The notes beneath the pieces are model-generated. The model did no database searches. It was given only the letters and a program-made list of their open reading frames with translations, and had not been told where the DNA came from. Source: an archaeon (GTDB lineage: Archaea; EX4484-52; GLR71). From it: a stretch of DNA of 57,273 bases. The DNA is taken from NCBI GenBank assembly GCA_013138805.1, contig WTCA01000015.1, forward strand, positions 1 to 57,273. Direction: 5' to 3'. Made by a program: the position numbers and the translations under genes. Shown here one piece after another: positions 1 through 39,145 of this stretch. Position 1 is the first letter of the stretch; the number at the start of each line of letters is the position of its first letter.

Positions 1-42
1 ATGGATCGCTGGGACAGGGAGATGGGGTGGGTCTCATGTTGA

Positions 43-51
43 CTTATAAAG
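43..51 (+). promoter_or_regulatory. TATA-box-like element (CTTATAAAG) upstream of 73..768
   Basis: TTATAAA core about 22 nt upstream of the ATG at 73. Same core as the recurrent promoter motif in this window. Confidence 0.4.
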
Positions 52-72
52 AGGGGAATGTCATAGTCATGT

Positions 73-3986: not shown

Positions 3987-4238
3987 ATGTTGAATACTGA
4001 TGGTCTGTTATTGACGGTGATAGGTATTCTTGTACTAAGTATCATCATCGGATACCTGTTGATGTATTGGCATTATAATAAGCTAGAATCTACGCCTGAC
4101 TGTGATTACTGTGTCCATTGCAGAAAGGATATGATGTGCTCTAAGAAGAATGTCGGGGTGGATCATGTCATTATAAAAGATGTCATTGACAATGGCTGTA
4201 AGGATTATGAGTATAGGAAAGGAGACATGTCAGCATGA
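3987..4238 (+). CDS. small membrane protein with Cys-rich tail
   Basis: 83 aa. N-terminal TM segment LLLTVIGILVLSIIIGYLLMYW, then CDYCVHC. Confidence 0.6.
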   Translation: MLNTDGLLLTVIGILVLSIIIGYLLMYWHYNKLESTPDCDYCVHCRKDMMCSKKNVGVDHVIIKDVIDNGCKDYEYRKGDMSA

Positions 4239-4702
4239 TATCTGATGAAGTCAAGGGAGAGGTCAACGAGCTTCATCGCAGGTTCTGTTTCCATTGCAGG
4301 AAAGATCTGGTGTTTCAGGGATATCAGGTAGGCAGGTTCATAGGCATAGACAAGATAACTGTCATATGTCCTGAGTGTGGCGGGGAGACAGGCTGTTTCA
4401 GGTCTCAGGAAGATATCAATTCCAAGAGAGCGTCTATGCTGGTGTTGGACAGTGACATGGCAAAGGTCAAGAGATTTCCTAGCCTGTATAGAGGTAAGAG
4501 GCAGGATGACTGGAAACGCAGGGTATACGGAATCCCTGACATCAAGAGGGAGACCAAGGATGGGTCTATAATGGATTACAGGCATAAGGGTATGTCTGCT
4601 TTCAAGTGTGGTGGCGGTGATGATGAAGATAGTGGTGCAGGTCTGGACAAAGATCTTGATGACTATGATGATGACGATGACGATGAGAGGGGTGTATGTT
4701 GA
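4235..4702 (+). CDS. zinc-ribbon protein with acidic tail
   Basis: 155 aa. CFHC...CPECGGETGC. C-terminal DDYDDDDDDE. ATGA overlap with the upstream gene. Confidence 0.6.
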   Translation: MISDEVKGEVNELHRRFCFHCRKDLVFQGYQVGRFIGIDKITVICPECGGETGCFRSQEDINSKRASMLVLDSDMAKVKRFPSLYRGKRQDDWKRRVYGIPDIKRETKDGSIMDYRHKGMSAFKCGGGDDEDSGAGLDKDLDDYDDDDDDERGVC

Positions 4703-4872
4703 TGATGAGATATCTTATGGTTGCTGTACTGGTATGTGTGCTGGCAGTATCTGGCTGTACTTCGTATGACTCATGCATGGAAGACTGCATGGGTTCTCAT
4801 GATGCTGTCTATGATGCTTCATATATGGAATGTTATGATAGCATAGATTTCAGTGAATGTTTGATAGAATAG
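4702..4872 (+). CDS. small Cys-rich lipobox protein, truncated paralog of 4973..5215
   Basis: Hand-translated 56 aa: MMRYLMVAVLVCVLAVSGCTSYDSCMEDCMGSHDAVYDASYMECYDSIDFSECLIE. Signal peptide plus SGC lipobox. TGATG overlap with the upstream stop. Confidence 0.45.
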   Translation: MMRYLMVAVLVCVLAVSGCTSYDSCMEDCMGSHDAVYDASYMECYDSIDFSECLIE

Positions 4873-4883
4873 ATACTAAACAG

Positions 4884-4973
4884 ATGATCACATGGGAACT
4901 GAATGTATGTAATGTCATGGCGACAGAATCTGTCAATACAGTATGCTATGATGAATGTAGGTGTATGGACTGA
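4884..4973 (+). pseudogene. detached C-terminal fragment of the lipobox-protein paralog
   Basis: The 29-aa frame ends ...SVNTVCYDECRCMD. This aligns with the ...YVNRICYDECRGVD end of 4973..5215. It is in a different frame from 4702..4872. Confidence 0.35.
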
Positions 4974-5215
4974 TGAGATTATATATAATTGCTGTATTGA
5001 TATGCATTCTGGTAATATCTGGCTGTACGTCATATGACTCATGCAGGGGGGACTGCGTAAGGTATCACAATGAAGATTATGACGCTGTGTACTATGAATG
5101 CTATGATAACATCATTCCTGCAGACAGGACTATGTTTGATAAAGGCAACTGCAGAGTTGAAGCGACCAGATATGTCAACAGGATATGCTATGACGAATGC
5201 AGGGGTGTGGACTGA
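4973..5215 (+). CDS. small Cys-rich lipobox (putative lipo)protein
   Basis: Track ORF 4961..5215. The ATG at 4973 gives MRLYIIAVLICILVISGCTSYDSC..., parallel to the paralogs at 4702 and 7953. Confidence 0.6.
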   Translation: MRLYIIAVLICILVISGCTSYDSCRGDCVRYHNEDYDAVYYECYDNIIPADRTMFDKGNCRVEATRYVNRICYDECRGVD

Positions 5216-5547
5216 TGAATGAAGACATGGATTCAAGGAGGAAACCAGTGCATAGACATCACGGGTTCTGGGAATCTTTCAGGGACAGTCTAGGTAAGGT
5301 CAAGGACAGGATCGCTATATATGATGATGTATCTGAGGACACCAAGATATATCTTGTCATGTCATTTAAGCAGTCCTGTGTCTTGATAATAGAATCTGTC
5401 ACATTACTCTTTGTGCTGGTTCGTGCAGTGTGCATGATGTTCTTTTTTGTGGCAGTCCTGATGACAGTCATACTGTTGCGGATAGTCATGGATATCATAG
5501 ACATGGCTATCATGCTCAGCAAAGATAAGCATAATAAACGGAAATGA
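5215..5547 (+). CDS. membrane protein
   Basis: Track ORF 5197..5547. The ATG at 5215 overlaps the upstream stop (TGATG). Two hydrophobic helices in the C-terminal half. Confidence 0.55.
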   Translation: MNEDMDSRRKPVHRHHGFWESFRDSLGKVKDRIAIYDDVSEDTKIYLVMSFKQSCVLIIESVTLLFVLVRAVCMMFFFVAVLMTVILLRIVMDIIDMAIMLSKDKHNKRK

Positions 5548-5957
5548 TATGTATGGATGGCGAAGACCAGAAAGAGTTTGATACTGCATTGAAAGGGGAT
5601 ATAGACAGTATAGACAAGGACGTTATCAGGAAATCATATTATGAGGATTATCCTGCCGGTACATTGAGGGTCAACCTGTTGCCTGTCGAGGTGCAGATAC
5701 TGGTGGTCAGCCTGTATAGTCTCAGGACAGATTCGGATGCAGAGAAAGATATATTCGGGCGGGTGCTCACTGCATATAGAGAATACCGAGATTCTGATAT
5801 CGGTGATGACATCACCATCGAGCTGGTAATATCATTCCTTGATCTGGAGATCATGATGCTCAGCCTGTATGGGTTCGGGTGCAGGGCTGGTGTTGGGCTG
5901 GGCTTGCTGGAATCACTTGATAAGTTGCATAAGAAAGTCAAGGTACAAAGGGGTTAA
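5544..5957 (+). CDS. hypothetical protein
   Basis: 137 aa ORF with an ATGA overlap to the upstream gene. Confidence 0.55.
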   Translation: MICMDGEDQKEFDTALKGDIDSIDKDVIRKSYYEDYPAGTLRVNLLPVEVQILVVSLYSLRTDSDAEKDIFGRVLTAYREYRDSDIGDDITIELVISFLDLEIMMLSLYGFGCRAGVGLGLLESLDKLHKKVKVQRG

Positions 5958-5966
5958 GATATTTAT

Positions 5967-6089
5967 ATGATAACTGCCGAACTGTTCGTGCTGTGCAAGC
6001 TCTTTATCCCGTCAGATGTTGACTGGGTATGGGTGTTGCTGTTCCTGCTGTCTGATTCGATGATGTGGGCTAGCATCAATAAAAAATAA
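5967..6089 (+). CDS. hypothetical mini membrane protein (40 aa, hand-translated)
   Basis: MITAELFVLCKLFIPSDVDWVWVLLFLLSDSMMWASINKK. Fills the gap before 6107. Confidence 0.3.
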   Translation: MITAELFVLCKLFIPSDVDWVWVLLFLLSDSMMWASINKK

Positions 6090-6106
6090 GAGGACGTGAA
6101 TTTTAT

Positions 6107-6388
6107 ATGGACTGGAAAAGGATAAGCAATCGGATGGATATCATAGGCTGTGCAGTCGCATCAGCTCTAGTAGTATTTTATGTGTTTGCAGTGCCTATGT
6201 TATACCTGCTCATGTCAGGCATAGGCATCCTGTATACAGTCATGGTCTTTCTCATGGTCACAGGCATGGTCAGTCTATACATAGGCACTTTCATGTTTCT
6301 CAGGAACCAGACCGCTAAGTTTGACAGGGTGATGGAACGCAGGCAGAGACATAAGAAGGTAATGAAAGGACAGAGGACGTTGGGATGA
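6107..6388 (+). CDS. membrane protein (paralog of 6385..6678)
   Basis: 93 aa with 2 TM helices. Shares the IGCAVASA motif with the next ORF. Confidence 0.6.
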   Translation: MDWKRISNRMDIIGCAVASALVVFYVFAVPMLYLLMSGIGILYTVMVFLMVTGMVSLYIGTFMFLRNQTAKFDRVMERRQRHKKVMKGQRTLG

Positions 6389-6678
6389 TCAGCATGTCAG
6401 TCAAGATCATAGATATATTGGGTCGGCTAGGATGCGCCGTTGCATCTGCCATAGTCACCCTAGACATGTTCATGGTGCTCATCACTGTCCATATGACATC
6501 TGGGTACAGTCTCTGGAACTTGTTGATGGTGATCCTGTTACATATAGGGATGATCACCATGTATCTGTGCCTGTACATATTCTTCATTGATATGCAAAGG
6601 CGTATTCCAGATTATTTCTGGTTCAAGGTAATAGCAGATGTCAATACACAAAAAGAACAAGAAACGGTAGGTGGTTAA
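6385..6678 (+). CDS. membrane protein (paralog of 6107..6388)
   Basis: 97 aa with an LGCAVASA motif and 2-3 TM helices. ATGA overlap. Confidence 0.6.
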   Translation: MISMSVKIIDILGRLGCAVASAIVTLDMFMVLITVHMTSGYSLWNLLMVILLHIGMITMYLCLYIFFIDMQRRIPDYFWFKVIADVNTQKEQETVGG

Positions 6679-6681
6679 ATT

Positions 6682-7947
6682 ATGGCAAGAGACAAGACGA
6701 CATATACAGGGTTCATCAACACGCCCATGAGCGACTACGTCGATGCGCTGAAAGATACCATGACCATGTTTGACGTGCCGGAACAGTTCGCCAAGAAGCA
6801 GGATCCTCACGTGGCATACCAGATATTTGAGAAAGATATACAGTACAGGGTCACGCCGTTGAAGTCTGGTGAGCTGAGGGCTAACCTGAACATCATACTG
6901 AACATATACGGTTCTCAGGGGTCAGGCAAGTCAGTCATAGGTCTGTCCTTATATCACTTGATATGTCAGTATGCAGGCAGGAAGCCAGACATAAGGGAGA
7001 TCTTCTTTTCTATCAATGATATTCATGTATATACCAAGGAGATGGCTGACAAGGGCGACCTGAAATCACGGTGCATACTGCTTGATGAGCAGATGTCGAC
7101 CGAGAGGTACGGCATGGGGTCTGCAGAGAGGGTGGATAAATTGTTTGACATAATCAGGATCATCCGTGACTCACAGGTATCGTTCATAATGATATCGCCC
7201 GATAACGTGTTCAACTTTCCTGCACACTACTGCATCGAGGCATGGCGTAAGAATTTCAGGGAACGTAGCAACCTGTCTTTCCTGATCGAGATGCGGAATA
7301 AGAGACCGATAACTATCATGGCTACACCGTTAATGTTCTCTCTGGAAGGTGACTTCAATCAGGCGTACCTGAAAAAGAAACGTGCATTCATACAGAAGTT
7401 TGCGTCGCAGAAAGAGGATGACATATCCACTGAGATACGGGACAAGGCAGAGAAGATGTGCGCTGAGGACAGGTTCATTAACTGCTACAACAAGATGCTC
7501 CAGCTTGATCTGTACATGCAGATGTTTGGCAAGGCATCCAACGATTTCATGCAGACTGTCTGTGCCAAGGCAGAACAGATGTTGCTCAGCAAGGGTGGGT
7601 TCTTCGAGAAGCCCAAAAGGTTCAGGTCTAAGGGTGCTGGTGGTGGTAAGGCAGATGATCAGGATGACGTGCATGATGCTGGTGCAGACCAGCCTGACCG
7701 GTTCACCGGCGAGACTGATGAAGATAAGCCTAAATCTAAGACTAAGCCTGAGCCTAAGCCTAAGCCTAAGCCCAAAGATATATCTAGGGCAGATGCTGAT
7801 GATGACAGTGACATAGACCTAGACCTGAAAGCCAGCGAAGGTGTCCTGAGCGGGTTTGCAGGTGCCAAGCAGTTAGAGGATCAGATAAAAGGTAAGCCTA
7901 AAGGTAAAGGTAAGAGCAAGGGCAAGAGCAGAAAAGATAAGGAGTGA
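6682..7947 (+). CDS. P-loop NTPase with disordered KP-rich C-terminal tail (possible DNA-translocating/packaging ATPase)
   Basis: Walker A is GSQGSGKS. Walker B is CILLDEQ. The last ~110 aa are low complexity (KPKSKTKPEPKPKPKPK, GKPKGKGKSKGKS). Confidence 0.7.
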   Translation: MARDKTTYTGFINTPMSDYVDALKDTMTMFDVPEQFAKKQDPHVAYQIFEKDIQYRVTPLKSGELRANLNIILNIYGSQGSGKSVIGLSLYHLICQYAGRKPDIREIFFSINDIHVYTKEMADKGDLKSRCILLDEQMSTERYGMGSAERVDKLFDIIRIIRDSQVSFIMISPDNVFNFPAHYCIEAWRKNFRERSNLSFLIEMRNKRPITIMATPLMFSLEGDFNQAYLKKKRAFIQKFASQKEDDISTEIRDKAEKMCAEDRFINCYNKMLQLDLYMQMFGKASNDFMQTVCAKAEQMLLSKGGFFEKPKRFRSKGAGGGKADDQDDVHDAGADQPDRFTGETDEDKPKSKTKPEPKPKPKPKDISRADADDDSDIDLDLKASEGVLSGFAGAKQLEDQIKGKPKGKGKSKGKSRKDKE

Positions 7948-7952
7948 TCAAT

Positions 7953-8207
7953 ATGGATAAGAAGTATATTGTGGTACTGTTGCTGGCTGTATTGTTCATG
8001 TCAGGGTGCGTGTCGGGGAGAACTTCATGCGTGACTGATTGCAGGTATGAACATGCAGATGATTATTTCACTGTAAGGGATGGATGCATTGATGACACTG
8101 AATATGTATATAATGATACCATCGGTGTATATGCCTATTGCGTCTATATAGCCGATGCTGGTCTGGACGAGGACTGTGCCCGCTCTTGCGTAGATATCAA
8201 GAGATAA
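7953..8207 (+). CDS. small Cys-rich lipobox protein (third paralog)
   Basis: Track ORF 7944..8207. The ATG at 7953 gives MDKKYIVVLLLAVLFMSGCVSG.... Cys spacing resembles 4973..5215. Confidence 0.6.
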   Translation: MDKKYIVVLLLAVLFMSGCVSGRTSCVTDCRYEHADDYFTVRDGCIDDTEYVYNDTIGVYAYCVYIADAGLDEDCARSCVDIKR

Positions 8208-8382
8208 GTGTCAATAGGTTTATAAACATGGAATCCTCAGTATTATGTGTGCATGATGCTTTCAGGGTATCACTACACGCAGACGGCATCTGCTGACCGT
8301 TGAATAAATACCAGCACAGGGTCAATAAGAGGTCTCCCTGCCTGATGGCACAGACCCATCAAAGCCTTGTCCTGATTCTTCT

Positions 8383-8400
8383 CATGCTATCTTATAAACA
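8383..8400 (+). promoter_or_regulatory. recurrent promoter motif CATGCTATCTTATAAACA (BRE/TATA-like)
   Basis: Exact motif 34 nt upstream of the ATG at 8434. The same 18-mer occurs at 9997 and 12842. Confidence 0.65.
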
Positions 8401-8433
8401 GACAGATTCAAATAATAGGTAAGGTAATGTTCT

Positions 8434-8673
8434 ATGGTACATAGATTCAGGTCTGATGCACAGCGAAAGGCTGTGATGGGTAATTTTAGATCAAGATTAC
8501 CTAGGGTGGTTGTAGGAAAACATAAAGGGATTAAAGTTAGGCTTAGGTATCCTTCTGAGATGGCAGGCTATATAACCTATACTTTTGCATCCATATCGGA
8601 AGCCAATAGATATTTAGATAGTGGTTGGGTAAGTGACTGGGCTAAAAGGCGGGCAAAGATTACTAGATTATGA
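8434..8673 (+). CDS. Leader-B family protein
   Basis: N-terminus MVHRFRSDAQRKAVMGNF. 79 aa. Confidence 0.8.
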   Translation: MVHRFRSDAQRKAVMGNFRSRLPRVVVGKHKGIKVRLRYPSEMAGYITYTFASISEANRYLDSGWVSDWAKRRAKITRL

Positions 8674-8685
8674 TAAGGGGATTAT

Positions 8686-9189
8686 ATGGCGACAAGATTC
8701 ATGACTAAAGGCAAGGGCAATGGACGTAAAGTCATCCCTCTGAAGGACAGGGCATCTGTCGGGGTTAACCGACATGCTGTTAAGATACATCCTAATAATA
8801 TATCTAAGAATATATTTATATTCGGGGGTAAAGATAAAGATGGTAAAGAGATCATATATCATCTAAAAGATATGTTCTCTCCTGATGCTGTAGATATCGC
8901 AGACAGTTATCATAAGGATATTACTGGTATGGATAGGAATTTTGGTTGGGATTCTTCTGCGAGTGCGACAAAAGAATCTATATCTAGCTATTTTCCAGAT
9001 GGTGTCAGGTTTGTATCTATACCCAAAGATTATAAAGCTAAACCACATAAAAGGGATATCCTTGATGATATCATAGTATATGAATCTGGTGAGATGACTC
9101 CTGCTGAAGAATTAGCATTCTTTAAGAAGAATAAAGATATACTATCTAAGTTACAAGGACATTACGGTAGGCGTATAAGTCGTATGTGA
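8686..9189 (+). CDS. Leader-A family protein
   Basis: N-terminus MATRFMTKGKGNGRKVIPLKD. 167 aa. Confidence 0.8.
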   Translation: MATRFMTKGKGNGRKVIPLKDRASVGVNRHAVKIHPNNISKNIFIFGGKDKDGKEIIYHLKDMFSPDAVDIADSYHKDITGMDRNFGWDSSASATKESISSYFPDGVRFVSIPKDYKAKPHKRDILDDIIVYESGEMTPAEELAFFKKNKDILSKLQGHYGRRISRM

Positions 9190-9194
9190 TACTC

Positions 9195-9545
9195 ATGACA
9201 ACAAGATTCATAACAAAAGGCAAAGGTGCAGGCAGGAGAGTTATCCCTATATCTGCTTCTGTCTCTAATACTGCGCTGGCACGGGTATATAAAGAGATGG
9301 ACAAGACCTTTAAGGTAGGTAAGGAAGATGCATCACTGTATGTACATCTGAACCTTCGTAATGGAGAAGATATTGTATTGGATATCCCTAAAGAAAAGGT
9401 TGCGAAGCTATTGGCGGATATGGATACAGGTAAGTCTAAGAATGTTCTGATATTTGATGATGACTGTGCAGTCAGGATTGCAGATATAGTATCTATACAA
9501 GTAGATGATGCTGAAATGAGTGCTATAAGCCGACCTGAAGATTGA
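9195..9545 (+). CDS. Leader-A family protein
   Basis: Track ORF 9186..9545. The ATG at 9195 gives MTTRFITKGKGAGRRVIPIS. GTGATACTC precedes the ATG, as at 9569. Confidence 0.8.
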   Translation: MTTRFITKGKGAGRRVIPISASVSNTALARVYKEMDKTFKVGKEDASLYVHLNLRNGEDIVLDIPKEKVAKLLADMDTGKSKNVLIFDDDCAVRIADIVSIQVDDAEMSAISRPED

Positions 9546-26801: not shown

Positions 26802-27044
26802 ATGGGTTTCTTGACTTCTTACCTCCAGTTCTGGGACACCCTATGGTACATCATGTTCAGTGGCATGGTCAAGATAGCAAACATCATAACATTCAGCCCT
26901 GAACTTGCACCGCTCAATGTCATAGGTCAACCCACTCCTATCCTTGCGCCGTCCGGCGAGTTTCAGATATCGGTATATTTCTTCATGACATTCATACTGC
27001 ACTTCATAGTGCTGGTCGCACTGATGGACAAGGGCAAGCGTTGA
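26802..27044 (+). CDS. small membrane protein
   Basis: 80 aa with two hydrophobic segments and a KGKR tail. Has its own promoter motif and a T-rich tract after the stop. Confidence 0.6.
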   Translation: MGFLTSYLQFWDTLWYIMFSGMVKIANIITFSPELAPLNVIGQPTPILAPSGEFQISVYFFMTFILHFIVLVALMDKGKR

Positions 27045-27060
27045 AATCTTTTGTTTTTCT
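27041..27060 (+). terminator. oligo-T terminator-like tract
   Basis: TTGAAATCTTTTGTTTTTCT, overlapping and following the stop of 26802..27044. Confidence 0.35.
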
Positions 27061-27072
27061 ACATGCAATAAA

Positions 27073-27233
27073 GGTAAATCTCCATAAGAAATCAAGGTCA
27101 ATCTCCATAGGAAATCAAGGTAAATATCCATAAGAAATCAGGGTAAATCTCCATAGGAAATCAGGGTAAATCTCCATAGGAAATCAAGGTAAATCTCCAT
27201 AGGAAATAAGGGTATGTCTGCATGAGGTAGGGG
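27073..27233. repeat. 23-bp tandem repeat x6 plus one degenerate unit (GGTAAATCTCCATAGGAAATCAR), iteron-like
   Basis: Units counted at 27073, 27096, 27119, 27142, 27165 and 27188, plus a degenerate unit at 27211. Head-to-tail, with no spacers. Lies in a convergent intergenic region. Confidence 0.9.
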
Positions 27234-27396
27234 TGGAGCCGGAAGCCCTGACTTGCCGTGCATCAGGCGCTCCTGACATCCAAGGGTACTCTGCCGACAT
27301 ATATGAACAGGTATGATCGTGTGCTATGTGGACAGGACATATAATTATATCTCTGATGCTTATATACCTGCAGAGATGGATGTATATAAAGTTAAT

Positions 27397-27717
27397 TTAG
27401 ATGATCTGTAGGACACAGCAATGGCAGTCACACCTGTGCTCTCTCCTGTCACCCTTGAAGCGTCCGACAGGATGCACGGCACCGTGACTGCATGTCCAGC
27501 CTATGCCACCGTCAGGATCATGGGACAGGTCAGATTCCCTGAGTCCGTACATGTGTGCTGTCCTTCTCAGCATGTCTCCTCTGGTCTCTTTGAGTATCCC
27601 CAGATCGACAAGGTCGATGTGCTGTCCTGCCGTATGTCCTGACCTCTTGCAGATGGAGCACCAGTTAGAATTGTCTCTGTCTGATGCCGTGTCTGTCTGG
27701 GCGTACATGATGATCAT
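27397..27717 (-). CDS. Cys/His-rich protein with zinc-knuckle-like motif
   Basis: 106 aa. CSICKRSGHTAGQH (CX2CX4HX4H) and HRCDCHCC. ATGA overlap with the upstream minus-strand gene. Confidence 0.55.
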   Translation of the reverse strand: MIIMYAQTDTASDRDNSNWCSICKRSGHTAGQHIDLVDLGILKETRGDMLRRTAHMYGLRESDLSHDPDGGIGWTCSHGAVHPVGRFKGDRREHRCDCHCCVLQII

Positions 27718-27947
27718 CTCTCAGCTATTCTTGATCTTAATGCTTCTTTGATCGCTGATTTCAGACCTTTTATCCTGAGACTATCTTCATGTAGCACTCT
27801 GTCATTTGTCTTCATGTAACCGTTTAATGATACACAGCTGTCAACAGAGATCAGGTGCAGTAGATCTTCCGCTTCTTCAATTGTTTCCAGCTTGATTATG
27901 ATCGGTACGAACGGTTCAGTCTCTCTTTCAATTCTCATCATTTTCAC
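27714..27947 (-). CDS. hypothetical protein
   Basis: 77 aa ORF in the minus-strand operon. Confidence 0.5.
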   Translation of the reverse strand: MKMMRIERETEPFVPIIIKLETIEEAEDLLHLISVDSCVSLNGYMKTNDRVLHEDSLRIKGLKSAIKEALRSRIAER

Positions 27948-28323
27948 CTGTATTCAATAATTCTGGATTCTTGAACCTGTTTCCTATGATGACATACGCA
28001 TTTTTTGAGACGTAGTGCCATAGGCTGTCATTCCCTAGACAGAACATGCCATACTCTAAAGTGACGACCTTCTTACTTGCATCTTTATGTCCTTCAAATT
28101 GCAGTATGTCACCTACATAGATATCTTTGCCGTCCTTGTCTTGGAGTCCTGTGAACTGTACAAGGTCAACACGTTCTGCAGTGACAAATTCATTACAGTA
28201 TCTATTTTGGATCTCTATGATGAAAGTTGATTTACCATACTCTGTGATATATCTTATGCTGTTTACTCTCTTGAACAGTTTTTCTTTTTTGTCCCATGCC
28301 TTAAATTGTGGGTGTGCTTCCAT
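27928..28323 (-). CDS. YopX-family protein
   Basis: 131 aa. DKDGKDIYVGDIL ... IIGNRFKNPELL is the characteristic YopX pattern. Confidence 0.75.
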   Translation of the reverse strand: MEAHPQFKAWDKKEKLFKRVNSIRYITEYGKSTFIIEIQNRYCNEFVTAERVDLVQFTGLQDKDGKDIYVGDILQFEGHKDASKKVVTLEYGMFCLGNDSLWHYVSKNAYVIIGNRFKNPELLNTGENDEN

Positions 28324-28362
28324 GATATATCATCTATTATCTGATAAAAATTGGAGAGTTGT

Positions 28363-28393
28363 CAGGAACCCCTGAGAAGACTGAGGGTTCCTG
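28363..28393 (-). terminator. 9-bp stem hairpin (CAGGAACCC/GGGTTCCTG) followed by a T-tract on the minus strand
   Basis: Perfect inverted repeat with a 13-nt loop, between the stop of 28471..28950 and the start of the YopX gene. Confidence 0.45.
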
Positions 28394-28470
28394 ATAACTT
28401 GGATCTGTCCACGACATCCCCTTCACAGGATATCAGGTGAACTATGATATGTGATATGTGTGCGACTTCC

Positions 28471-28950
28471 TTATATGTCCTGAAGCCTTCTCATGTACAG
28501 TCCCATCATGCACACTAAGATAGGTATCATGGCGCTGGAGAACTCAGGTATCGCCACATCCTCTTCAGGCTCGCCGTTCGATGACGATGATGACAGGCTG
28601 TATGAACTACCGCCACCGGAGAACGATCCGCATGAGTTGGTCTTGTTGTGCAGGTACAGTATGCATACCTCTCCGTCTGACAGGTCTGGGTCTATGGGAT
28701 TGCTGAGCACGATATATTCATCTGTGTCTGGCTCAGGCTCTGGCTCTGGCTCTGGCTCTGGCATGTCCATCATGCCTTCTATGGCATCTGCAAGGTCAGG
28801 GGTAAGGTCTGAGGCAAGGGCTACTGTGTCATTGTCAGGATCCTGATGCCGGCTCACCATGTTGTTGTCATTGATTATATAGAACAGGGAAAGGGTTATG
28901 CATAGCACTGATACGATCGCTATTGTGATCAGCTTTCCTTTAATCTCCAT
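28471..28950 (-). CDS. membrane/secreted protein with PEF-CTERM-like sorting tail
   Basis: N-terminal TM segment, a (PE)6 repeat and a Ser-rich linker. C-terminus IPEFSSAMIPILVCMMGLYMRRLQDI is a PEF motif, then a TM helix, then RR. Confidence 0.65.
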   Translation of the reverse strand: MEIKGKLITIAIVSVLCITLSLFYIINDNNMVSRHQDPDNDTVALASDLTPDLADAIEGMMDMPEPEPEPEPEPDTDEYIVLSNPIDPDLSDGEVCILYLHNKTNSCGSFSGGGSSYSLSSSSSNGEPEEDVAIPEFSSAMIPILVCMMGLYMRRLQDI

Positions 28951-28965
28951 GTCATCTCATCCTCA

Positions 28966-29544
28966 TCATTGATTTATAGAGATATCTTTAAATCCTTTGT
29001 GTAGCATCTTCAGGTGTGACATGTCTACCACGGCGCCATGCCTGATGAAGACGTCATGAAATCTCTCATAATGATCGCCCCAGTAGATCATGGCACATGC
29101 CATAGGGGCACCCTTCCCTATGTCCTCTCCATCCTCTAAAAATCTTAGGCGGGTGTCAGACAAGAAGCAGACAGCGTTCGCTCTCCCATAGATGCTCCTT
29201 TTCCAATGTCCTGTGTTCGTGGCTACGGGGACAAGCGCCATGACCTCTGAACCGTATTCTTCATGTGCCTGCGCACATCTCTCTAACCATTGCCCTATCG
29301 TCGTCTTTCTCTCTCTGTCTCTTCCGTACGGTGGGTTGACATAGATGTTCAGATAGTTCCAAGACTCTTTCAGCCCATCTTTTTCAGGCAGGGTATATTC
29401 TATGTCGGCGTCGGTGATCGAGTGCTTATTTGAGCAGGGATCTAAGGCTATGTCTGCCCTGAACACTTCTCTGACAGCATCAACATACTTTTTAGGTGTG
29501 CCCCATTCTTTATTCTTTGAGATGACTTCTCTTCCTGCGGTCAT
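28966..29544 (-). CDS. DNA N6-adenine methyltransferase (phage Dam-type)
   Basis: EWGTPKKYVDAVREVF..IALDPCS and the catalytic NPPYG motif. 192 aa. Confidence 0.8.
   Translation of the reverse strand: MTAGREVISKNKEWGTPKKYVDAVREVFRADIALDPCSNKHSITDADIEYTLPEKDGLKESWNYLNIYVNPPYGRDRERKTTIGQWLERCAQAHEEYGSEVMALVPVATNTGHWKRSIYGRANAVCFLSDTRLRFLEDGEDIGKGAPMACAMIYWGDHYERFHDVFIRHGAVVDMSHLKMLHKGFKDISINQ
28977..29015. repeat. 39-bp perfect direct repeat, copy 1
   Basis: TAGAGATATCTTTAAATCCTTTGTGTAGCATCTTCAGGT. Identical to 29567-29605. Encodes LKMLHKGFKDIS at the 3' end of the methyltransferase gene. Confidence 0.95.
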
Positions 29545-29555
29545 CTTTTACCCCA

Positions 29556-29852
29556 TCATAAAATTTTAGAGATATCTTTAAATCCTTTGTGTAGCATCTT
29601 CAGGTATATTCTTAGCATCCTGACAGGCATGTAACGTAGGTCTTTGCACCTTGTCCTGTATCCTGCGATCAGCTCCATGCTATCGCAGGTGACAGGGTTC
29701 CTGAGACGGGCATACAGATTGTCAGTCCACTTTGAGCTGTTGGCACACCTGTTCTGGTATATGCATAGCGGGCACCATCTAGGTCTTTTCAGACCATAGG
29801 TACTGAAATCTGTACTGCTCTTCGTACTGCTCCTGTGCTTGTCTATAGCCAT
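29556..29852 (-). CDS. Cys-rich hypothetical protein
   Basis: 98 aa. The C-terminal 12 codons are identical to those of the Dam gene (39-bp repeat). Confidence 0.55.
   Translation of the reverse strand: MAIDKHRSSTKSSTDFSTYGLKRPRWCPLCIYQNRCANSSKWTDNLYARLRNPVTCDSMELIAGYRTRCKDLRYMPVRMLRIYLKMLHKGFKDISKIL
29567..29605. repeat. 39-bp perfect direct repeat, copy 2
   Basis: Identical to 28977-29015. Confidence 0.95.
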
Positions 29853-38035: not shown

Positions 38036-39145
38036 ATGATGGAATTTGACTTGAGCAAGAAAGCGACTGATGAAAGGTTACATGAATTTGCTGAGAAGAT
38101 ACAGGCTCTGTCTAGACAGATAGGGTTTAAGGTCTCTGCTAGAGGTTGGGCGTACCAGCTTGAGACAGAACGACTGGTCAACAAGGATGAGTTCGACAAG
38201 GTAGAATCTTGGATCAATAGGTGTAGACGAAATGGTATATTGCCTATAGATTTCACTGCTGAGGAAGAGGGCAGAAAATTCAGCGGTGTCGAGGTTCCAG
38301 AATCTAGGTCACCAAAAAAGTATCTGAGGTCATGGATAGACCAGACCATGAGAGCTGAAAAATGGTATGTACCAGATTGGTGGACGGGTGAAAAGTATTA
38401 TATACAGATGCTGGTCGAGAAAGTAGACCTGAAGACATTATTTATGCCTATATGTGAAGAGTTCCATATCCCTATCGCAACCAGCAAAGGTTGGAGCAGT
38501 ATGTTGCAGAGATCTGAATATGCACGGAGATTCAAGGAAGCTGAGGATAAGGGTCTTAAATGTGTCCTGCTATACTGTGGCGATTTTGACCCTGACGGAC
38601 TCAGGATATCTGAGCATATCAGAAAAAATCTATCAGACCTGAAGAACGTGAGATGGGATGATAGGGTACAAGGATACAATCCTAAGAACCTGATAATAGA
38701 GCGGTTCGGTCTTGAGCATGACTTCATACAGAAACATGGACTGACATGGATAGATAACCTGATCACGGGAAGCGGTTGTGAACTGGCAAGAGTTGTAGAC
38801 GGAAAGATCGTTGCAGGTCTGAACAAGAAACATCAACCCCACAAGAATTTTGGTATGATATATCTTCAGGAGTACCTGAAAAATTATGGGGTACGGAAAT
38901 GTGAAGCTAACGCATTGATCGTGTTGCCAGACATAGCCAGAGAGCTGGTGAAAGATACCATAATCGAGTATCTCGGTACAGGCGCACTGGAAAGGTTCGA
39001 TAATAAGAAACAGAATATTGTGGACAGGTTCAATGATTTCAGGGCTAGGTCAGGTCTGCAGGAATCATTGCAGAATGCATTGGACTTGATAGATGAAGAT
39101 GAAGATGACGCTGAGGATGAGGATGAAGATACTTATGAAATGTGA
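38036..39145 (+). CDS. Top6A/Spo11-like Toprim-domain protein (orphan)
   Basis: MLVEKVDLKTLF (Toprim Glu) and LLYCGDFDPDGLRI (DxDPxG) match the Topo VI-A/Spo11 Toprim signature. Acidic tail. Confidence 0.5.
   Translation: MMEFDLSKKATDERLHEFAEKIQALSRQIGFKVSARGWAYQLETERLVNKDEFDKVESWINRCRRNGILPIDFTAEEEGRKFSGVEVPESRSPKKYLRSWIDQTMRAEKWYVPDWWTGEKYYIQMLVEKVDLKTLFMPICEEFHIPIATSKGWSSMLQRSEYARRFKEAEDKGLKCVLLYCGDFDPDGLRISEHIRKNLSDLKNVRWDDRVQGYNPKNLIIERFGLEHDFIQKHGLTWIDNLITGSGCELARVVDGKIVAGLNKKHQPHKNFGMIYLQEYLKNYGVRKCEANALIVLPDIARELVKDTIIEYLGTGALERFDNKKQNIVDRFNDFRARSGLQESLQNALDLIDEDEDDAEDEDEDTYEM

Follow-up and report, generated by a model that had tools for sequence, protein, structure and literature searches.

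A tandem repeat array at a gene junction

The 57,273-bp contig WTCA01000015.1 (C37), the whole of which was analysed and is called the window here, is one of the 103 contigs of a 1.33-Mb archaeal metagenome-assembled genome (MAG; G000). The subject of this report is a block of tandem repeats whose units resemble archaeal origin-recognition boxes (ORBs), the sites recognised by Orc1/Cdc6, and which may serve the replication of a putative virus- or plasmid-like element. Tandem Repeats Finder reports a single array at 27067-27211, with a period of 23, 6.3 copies, 91% matches and no indels. The consensus unit is matched with 0-2 mismatches at 27073, 27096, 27119, 27142, 27165 and 27188. Neither the rest of the 57-kb window nor dinucleotide shuffles contain a further match; a degenerate seventh unit follows directly after the sixth, at 27211-27233. 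Since the period is not a multiple of three, the array encodes no repeated peptide. The remaining high-scoring tandem repeats of the window lie inside long open reading frames (ORFs), which leaves this array as the only sizeable non-coding one. An earlier note on this DNA had described six 23-bp units and a degenerate seventh at 27073-27233, starting 28 nt 3′ of the stop codon of ORF 26802..27044, as the only long non-coding tandem array, followed by a locally GC-rich segment, and all of these observations were confirmed by the repeat finder, the pattern search and the calculation of duplex stability.

The features of the locus are collected in Table 1. The T-run upstream of the array is likely, from its sequence, to be an archaeal oligo-T terminator of the plus-strand genes. 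On the other side, when the contig is ranked by duplex stability in 40- and 80-bp windows, the region ~27220-27280 falls within the top 0.1-0.4%, and it contains an imperfect inverted repeat whose outer arms are kept in the relatives described below, the loop being 12-13 nt longer in the window. Folding of this GC-rich segment, as RNA or DNA, was no better than that of shuffles, and a tRNA or attP fragment within it was rejected, as ARAGORN found none. An AT-rich, TATA-like tract follows at 27320-27400 and belongs, by the same ranking, to the least stable 1.5-3%. The earlier note also took the array to mark the switch from plus- to minus-strand genes; this holds at the locus itself, but the switch is local, as the minus-strand cassette that begins here (27397-29852, 2.5 kb) is set inside a plus-strand block running from ~70 to 43,000, and plus-strand genes resume after it to ~43 kb.

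Table 1. Positions of the repeat array and neighbouring features in the window
Feature	Position	Strand	Basis or remark
Gene for an 80-aa hydrophobic protein	26802..27044	+	last gene of a long plus-strand block; left synteny anchor
T-run TTTTGTTTTTC	27053..27063	+	9 nt past the stop of 26802..27044, just before the array
Six head-to-tail ORB-like boxes, 23-bp pitch	27078..27215	+	register ATCTCCATARGAAATCARGGTAA, with box starts at 27078, 27101, 27124, 27147, 27170 and 27193; equals array 27073-27210 in the register of the earlier note
Degenerate seventh unit GTCTGCATGAGGTA, fused to G-string-like GGGGTGGAG	27216..27238	+	sequence, alignment
Conserved non-coding element, ~175 bp	27229..27404	.	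~80% identity in both related lineages
GC-rich imperfect inverted repeat, GGAGC ... GCTCC, inner arms CCCTGA/TCAGG	27235..27273	.	sequence, alignment, duplex stability
Gene for a small Cys/His-rich protein (106-aa ORF)	27397..27717	-	right synteny anchor; minus frame backed by an excess of third-codon-position substitutions
Genes of the minus-strand cassette: YopX (27928-28323), 159-aa membrane protein, Dam-type N6-adenine methyltransferase (28966-29544)	27928..29544	-	Pfam

The repeat unit and archaeal origin-recognition boxes

Published ORB sequences include an archaeal consensus, CTTCCAGTGGAAACGAAAGGGGT, and a Methanomassiliicoccales consensus, GTTCCAGTGGAAATGG-AGGGGTA (PMC4153887 Table 2), as well as a euryarchaeal consensus, GTTCCAGTGGAAAC-AAA----GGGGG (PMC1868953). 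The shorter mini-ORB is of the core type TTCCAGTGGAAAC, which includes an A-rich tail and has invariant TTCC and GAA 4 nt apart; in Pyrococcus mini-ORBs, for example TTCCAGTGGAACT, these two motifs are described as 'perfectly conserved' (PMC1904270). The core of the window's unit, CTCCATAGGAAAT, fits the published mini-ORB (TTCC + GAA with a 4-nt gap). The units read CTCC-ATAR-GAAAT, and the pattern YTCC-N4-GAAR fits five of the six, the third unit having ATCC. Four of the six are within 1 mismatch of the literature ORB core, and when the window was scanned with a core taken from the literature only, all matches fell within the array. With a position weight matrix (PWM) of ORBs from the host lineage the six units score 17.3-24.8, and no other site in the window reaches at least 9.

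An unbiased scan used a weight matrix made from the six units only, run over the remaining 1.28 Mb of MAG sequence, and gave 5 sites of at least 16 bits, compared with 0 in the reversed genome. The second-best match, TTTTCTATAGGAAATAAAGGTTT, lies 70 bp upstream of the only orc1/cdc6 gene of the MAG (C79 4503-5711; Cdc6_C match), and the same contig has two more boxes, in inverted orientation, on either side of a 75-bp stretch of A and T only. Two boxes on contig C33 occupy an AT-rich gap adjoining an ORF that was read as ftsZ from sequence alone, and a weaker cluster of four boxes, for example GTTTCCATAAGAAATTAGGGGGT, is found directly 3′ of PolD DP2 (C75 4797-5075). In this last cluster a TATA-like box stands immediately before two of the boxes (ATATATAAGCG-GTTTCTATAGG..., GTATATAAAGG-GTTTCCATAAG...), and the same cluster is also present in two other genomes, G003 and G005. 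Two further ORB-like words on C33 (7971 and 8647), including the best PWM match of the MAG, are within a 657-aa ORF (7485-9458) that, from its N-terminal sequence alone, looks like an ATP-dependent DNA ligase; these recall the ORB cluster in Pyrococcus dp1 and may be there by chance.

The same word recurs among relatives of the MAG. Our sample consisted of 40 genomes in addition to G000, which covers all genomes listed for the phylum bar one and a single order. The 16-mer CCATARGAAATNARGG occurs in 9 of the 40, and a control with the reversed pattern matched in 0 of the 41 genomes. Boxes stand 50-220 bp upstream of cdc6 in G025 (C24), G040 (C129) and G021 (C64), the box of G040, AACTCCATAAGAAATCAAGGAGT, having an exact 18-mer in common with unit 1. 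The units match the published ORB consensus and also the variant TTTCCATARGAAATnARGGGGT, which precedes orc1/cdc6 by 50-220 bp in four genomes of this phylum and on two unrelated metagenome contigs; the latter, L048 and L073, which were recovered from metagenomes by the two-box motif alone, carry their boxes directly upstream of cdc6. Because the units match ORBs in sequence and the same word lies near cdc6 in genomes, we regard them as a variant of the ORB, and their identification as Orc1/Cdc6 recognition boxes is very probable.

This evidence bears on the proposal that the repeats are bound by a protein of the element itself, either as Rep iterons or as a partition centromere, and resemble ORBs by coincidence. 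Iterons and centromeres classically take the form of direct repeats of 17-23 bp, and many genes of the element are without assignable function. On the other hand, 16-18 contiguous bases of the unit match ORBs of the host lineage, the word is upstream of six cdc6 genes, and no isolated copies of the unit are present elsewhere on the element. No plasmid Rep family was recognised near the array or elsewhere on C37, and no ParA or ParB was recognised on the contig: there is no match to a ParA-type ATPase (AAA_31), the neighbouring genes include no ParB or RHH, and comparison of the neighbouring proteins with PHROGs, NCBIfam and PDB sequences gave no DNA-binding or initiator assignment. We therefore consider a site for an element-encoded protein improbable. 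Of the functions that the earlier note had put forward, a set of replication-origin iterons thus survives in altered form, as boxes of the archaeal Orc1/Cdc6 type with an inferred origin role and not as iterons of a plasmid Rep, while a partition site is disfavoured by the lack of a ParA-type ATPase on the contig. The third suggestion, an intergenic tandem repeat like those of large extrachromosomal elements in methane-cycling archaea, also fits poorly; in the Borgs, extrachromosomal elements of Methanoperedens (Schoelmerich and colleagues 2023), the tandem units are reportedly perfect (100% identical) and frequent across the element, whereas the units here are imperfect (91%) and have a recognisable identity as protein-binding (ORB) sites.

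A role of the array at the RNA level was also considered, namely as a long imperfect hairpin in minus-strand read-through transcripts that stabilises or ends the minus-strand mRNA. The minus strand of the array folds at -39.6 kcal/mol (z = -6.3), while the plus strand is less structured than shuffles, and no oligo-T terminator follows the minus-strand gene. Such a fold, however, is to be expected of any repeat of the ORB core, given its dyad symmetry together with G-U pairing, and the relatives have no array. A known RNA family at the locus was rejected for want of an Rfam match at the gathering threshold; the whole of C37 has no such match and no tRNA gene, and a relaxed Rfam search gave one chance match to an lncRNA (E = 0.55). 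An RNA element is the reading to which we attach the least credence, and it is very improbable.

Related lineages, the conserved element and gene content

Homologues of the 80-aa protein to the left of the array (P0004 and P0005, 74-75% identity) are encoded on cold-seep contigs that represent two related lineages, L003/L004/L005 (97-kb contig) and L009 (23.5-kb contig), with synteny on both sides of the array. The array itself, or any comparable non-coding tandem repeat, is absent from both lineages (17-20 kb each), so six copies are not required for this family of elements. The 218 bp of the window at 27045-27262 stand against ~2.4 kb in the relatives (L003 10240-12467; L009 10240-12470), which there hold a replacement cassette of three minus-strand genes: a 106-aa ORF, a cytidylate-kinase-like gene and a B12-binding radical SAM gene. 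The relatives in turn are missing YopX, the 77-aa ORF and Dam of the window, and the overall picture is one of cassette turnover on either side of one conserved non-coding island. Derivation of the array from the promoter region of the replaced radical SAM gene was rejected, as no significant similarity was found.

The conserved element that forms this island is composed of the G-string, the GC-rich inverted repeat, a block CTGACATCCAAGGGTACTCTGCCGACATATATGA and the AT-rich TATA-like tract. It contains GGGGTGGAGCC, which is invariant across all three lineages. Just to the right of the element, both relatives have a single-copy sequence that matches the reverse complement of the unit. The match in L009 is 20/24 over the unit plus spacer, which was equalled by 2/2000 shuffles, and L003 retains a 13/13 remnant, equalled by 4/2000 shuffles. 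This site in L009 contains a canonical inverted (minus-strand) ORB, ATTCCTGTGGAAACAAAGGTCAATCTCC, the sole core match in 17.5 kb, and at the left edge of the element there is a weak plus-strand box, CTATTGGATATG...GGGGT (p = 0.04). Judged by sequence, the two boxes that flank the element in L009 form the classical inverted layout. A long ORB at the left edge was significant in L009 only and not in the window or L003, and was rejected as a general feature. Since the unit has a match beside the element in both lineages, it is an old resident of this intergenic region that was amplified only in the lineage of the window. There the box on the right was apparently lost, while the one on the left was multiplied. 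The comparison of repeat copy number among related elements that the earlier note had proposed could thus be made, with two syntenic lineages, and yielded no array in either; the absence of repeats from syntenic relatives, which that note had set against an origin, is true of the array but not of the conserved element, which is kept together with a single ORB or its remnant. In the L003 lineage, 265 bp are inserted between the conserved element and the Cys-rich gene (L003 12744-13008, also L005 3097-3361). Within the insert, which lies 3′ of the conserved TATA-like box, a perfect stem of 12 bp (GTTGCACAGGCA ... TGCCTGTGCAAC) precedes T-runs, making the insert a candidate small RNA, with no match in Rfam.

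The lineage-specific occurrence of the array raises the possibility that it is a neutral by-product. In that case slippage or unequal exchange at a cassette junction would have multiplied an ORB, or a word resembling one, that stood beside the conserved element, and the additional copies would be without a function of their own. The array is found exactly where the relatives have the 2.4-kb three-gene cassette, the element is generally rich in tandem repeats, the seventh unit is decaying, and no significant selective constraint was detected among the units. It is more difficult to reconcile with neutrality that the six units keep all ORB core positions despite 9% overall divergence, and that a similar dense array on an unrelated tailed-virus contig (L029, see below) suggests some usefulness to mobile elements. 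Neutral amplification is in our view a possibility, although an unlikely one.

Few genes of C37 are recognisable, among them YopX, Dam, ArdC and a highly conserved Toprim/Top6A-like protein. Six-frame searches of the contig for Cdc6_C, AAA_22, MCM and Prim-Pol found none of these. Besides the genes in Table 1, the minus-strand cassette includes the 77-aa ORF and a 98-aa ORF. Only the C-terminal ~59 aa of the small Cys/His-rich protein (...HRCDCHCCVLQII) are kept in the relatives, whose proteins begin at MDIKKIAKQYGF...; the N-terminal extension in the window has a CX2CX4HX4H knuckle-like motif and may lack translation. The Toprim-like protein (38036-39145, 369 aa) has the motifs LVEK ... LLYCGDHDPDGLRIS (Top6A/Spo11-like) and matches phrog_6247 'DNA topoisomerase', with no Pfam domain. 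It has >2,000 homologues of 55-72% identity on 40-90-kb sediment and groundwater contigs, a conservation that is unusually strong for a gene of a mobile element.

A second contig, C9 (L159; 17,380 bp), has an exact 59 bp in common with the left end of C37 (C9 761-819 = window 1-59), and six of its genes carry the same two N-terminal leader tags as genes of C37. C9 probably belongs to the same element, or else to a sister element, and the element would then be larger than the window. The C9 gene at 4056-6410 codes for a 784-aa protein in which an MCM P-loop domain was recognised, and the further genes of the contig include an N6/N4 DNA methylase and a Band 7 protein; no ORB-like site was found on it.

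A possible origin that borrows the host initiator

Our interpretation is that the array is a locally amplified landing pad for Orc1/Cdc6 at the replication origin of the element, a proposal that we consider about evenly balanced against the others taken together. The 23-bp pitch would provide approximately one initiator footprint per unit, so that six or seven molecules of Orc1/Cdc6 could be bound side by side, probably cooperatively. A 22-bp ORB suffices for the ORC1 of Aeropyrum, and Methanothermobacter Cdc6-1 binds multiple mini-ORBs cooperatively (PMC1904270). As no recognisable Orc1/Cdc6 is encoded on C37, and the only cdc6 gene of the MAG is on the chromosomal contig C79, the boxes would recruit the protein of the host cell. 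The helicase, either the host MCM or the MCM-like protein of C9, might be loaded at the adjoining element of G-string, GC-rich inverted repeat and AT-rich tract, and this assembly would start replication, making the locus the origin of the element. A functional parallel for the GC-rich segment, by analogy, is the G-rich inverted repeat between ORBs that enhances oriC1 of Haloarcula hispanica (PMC3936714). The array itself would be a lineage-specific tandem amplification of one ancestral ORB. Binding of Orc1/Cdc6, DNA melting, helicase loading and origin activity are all steps that we infer from the DNA; the putative virus or plasmid most likely uses the boxes to copy itself with a borrowed host initiator.

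A number of observations weigh against this interpretation. With respect to the boxes, the units begin with CTCC or ATCC and not with the 'invariant' TTCC, and the full G-string is missing, the units ending in a truncated form, ARGGTAA; only the decayed seventh unit adjoins a G-string-like sequence, and the ORB likeness of that unit is by itself not significant. Mini-ORBs, it should be added, are by definition without a G-string. Constraint on the ORB-critical positions was not significant when these were defined from the literature, a non-circular set (p = 0.14), and an indication of purifying selection at these positions (p = 0.017) was dropped, as it came from a circular reference set. The chromosomal box closest to the units belongs to another family (G040) and not to G000; a host specificity of this ORB flavour is putative, all searchable relatives being of one order, and binning with the MAG is not proof of the host. 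With respect to the layout, all seven boxes point in the same direction and are confined to one flank of the AT-rich tract, no inverted partner box was found in the window by ORB motif scans, and the tract is only moderately unstable, ~10 places on the contig being less stable. Neither inverted ORBs flanking an AT-rich element nor an adjacent orc1/cdc6 or whiP gene, the features of an oriC-type origin, were found on C37. Convergent gene junctions such as this one are not where origins are usually found, and the array is missing from both related lineages. The ends of C37 do not overlap each other, which leaves circularity unsupported, and since the contig is not closed an initiator gene could sit outside it. 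Cumulative GC skew, suggested by the earlier note as a check, tracks gene orientation and transcription with no origin signal; it is uninformative either way on the location of an origin.

Several of these features would also suit a cluster of boxes that binds host Orc1/Cdc6 without firing and titrates the single initiator of the host, whether to throttle initiation on the host chromosome or to set or couple the copy number of the element, as a counterpart in a parasitic element of the ORB-rich oriC2D locus of Haloarcula hispanica and of datA, the initiator-titration locus of E. coli. The ORB identity of the units agrees with titration, as do the dense, spacer-free, direct boxes, the convergent junction, the lack of an obvious strong DNA-unwinding element (DUE) and the dispensability of the array in relatives. 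There is also a precedent, in which 11 ORBs in 722 bp have no autonomous replication activity (ARS) and exert negative control of oriC2 via titration of Cdc6E (PMC3936714). Against this, no other cluster of ORBs was found on C37 or on C9, and the element must start its replication somewhere; the array adjoins a conserved element with origin-like features; and with so small a number of sites as six, titration of a cellular protein would call for a high copy number of the element. We therefore regard titration as rather unlikely, and the proposed origin as the preferred reading.

Similar boxes were found on other mobile elements. Two tailed-virus contig fragments from IMG/VR have dense clusters of ORBs of the same flavour in their AT-rich start, beside HNH-terminase genes (L029, 1-420; L033, 200-420). 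In L029 there are 5-6 cores in ~95 bp, with a 78% match to the array of the window over 68 nt. Both contigs have genes for HNH, large terminase, portal and capsid proteins and no protein similarity to the window, which suggests that the strategy is not unique to this element. A 7-kb metagenome contig (L056 4805-6420) has a tight pair of ORBs with a 27-bp pitch just 3′ of a gene for DUF5906, a primase-helicase-type NTPase; it could be a further mobile element in which ORBs are combined with a helicase of the element. The exact unit had no match in IMG/VR, and the core of the conserved element none in IMG/VR or JGI metagenomes; its sole match in genome contigs (L010) was rejected as chance, being inside a bacterial gene. 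The two-box pattern, when searched in metagenomes and IMG/VR, mostly matched repeats within coding sequence or satellites.

To our knowledge, there is no experimental information on the replication of viruses and plasmids from DPANN-type archaea, and only rarely can such elements be assigned to a host. If our interpretation is correct, this element presents initiator boxes of the host type, supplies at most a helicase (the MCM-like gene of C9) and borrows Orc1/Cdc6. A 330-bp fragment of the locus and the Orc1/Cdc6 of C79 would then form a defined pair for a direct binding test. The ORB flavour of a mobile element may furthermore serve as a signal for host prediction, the same type of box being found in the two unrelated tailed-virus contigs. 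The family would also be a case in which an origin-type site has been amplified and lost over short evolutionary distances. Clusters of ORBs are well known from archaeal chromosomes and from haloarchaeal plasmids and viruses. Our literature search found no report that combines a strict tandem of host-type ORBs without spacers, a mobile element whose available sequence has no initiator gene, association with a DPANN-type archaeon and amplification in one lineage only. Viral genomes have been examined for host ORBs before: in the case of AGV1, the lack of such boxes led to the judgement that the virus does not replicate autonomously (bioRxiv 10.1101/2021.04.21.440749).

In its format the array is comparable to the iteron origins of bacterial theta plasmids such as pPS10, RK2 and F, in which head-to-tail repeats of 17-22 bp bind the initiator and adjoin an AT-rich tract. 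The array would work like these, with head-to-tail repeats beside an AT-rich tract, but the plasmids have an adjacent Rep gene of their own, whereas no Rep was found with the array and its unit belongs to the family of Orc1/Cdc6 boxes. Clusters of 13-bp mini-ORBs are present at the putative origin of M. thermautotrophicus and at oriC and dp1 of Pyrococcus (Capaldi & Berger 2004, via PMC1904270; Matsunaga et al. 2007). They share with the array several short TTCC-N4-GAA dyad cores, whose stable recognition requires cooperative or multi-site Orc1/Cdc6. Those clusters, however, are chromosomal, next to cdc6, irregularly spaced and mixed with inverted long ORBs, in contrast to the strict, spacer-free 23-bp tandem of a putative mobile element without cdc6, in which the core starts with CTCC and has an ATAR and not an AGTG centre.

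In Haloarcula hispanica, ORBs are found by a G/C-rich inverted repeat at oriC1, and many ORBs are packed into a short non-coding stretch at oriC2D (PMC3936714), both of which resemble the situation described here. These loci are chromosomal, have their own cdc6 genes and were genetically tested, whereas the array is known from its sequence and apparently serves a foreign initiator, that of the host. Haloarchaeal plasmids, minichromosomes and pleolipoviruses likewise have ORB repeats on extrachromosomal or viral DNA (pHV1/4 with 13 repeats, PMC1868953; HHPV4, PMC5867852). Unlike the window, pHV1/4 has its own orc1/cdc6, as do all H. volcanii replicons except pHV2 (PMC1868953), and the ORBs of the haloarchaeal extrachromosomal origins are dispersed around the DUE. 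The chromosomal ORBs of the MAG's phylum (C79 and C75 of G000, and G025, G040 and G021) have a 16-18-nt core, CCATARGAAATnARGG, that is identical to that of the array and includes the lineage-typical ATAR centre; they differ from it in having the full G-string (GGGGT), in standing 25-120 bp apart and in their position beside cdc6 or PolD.

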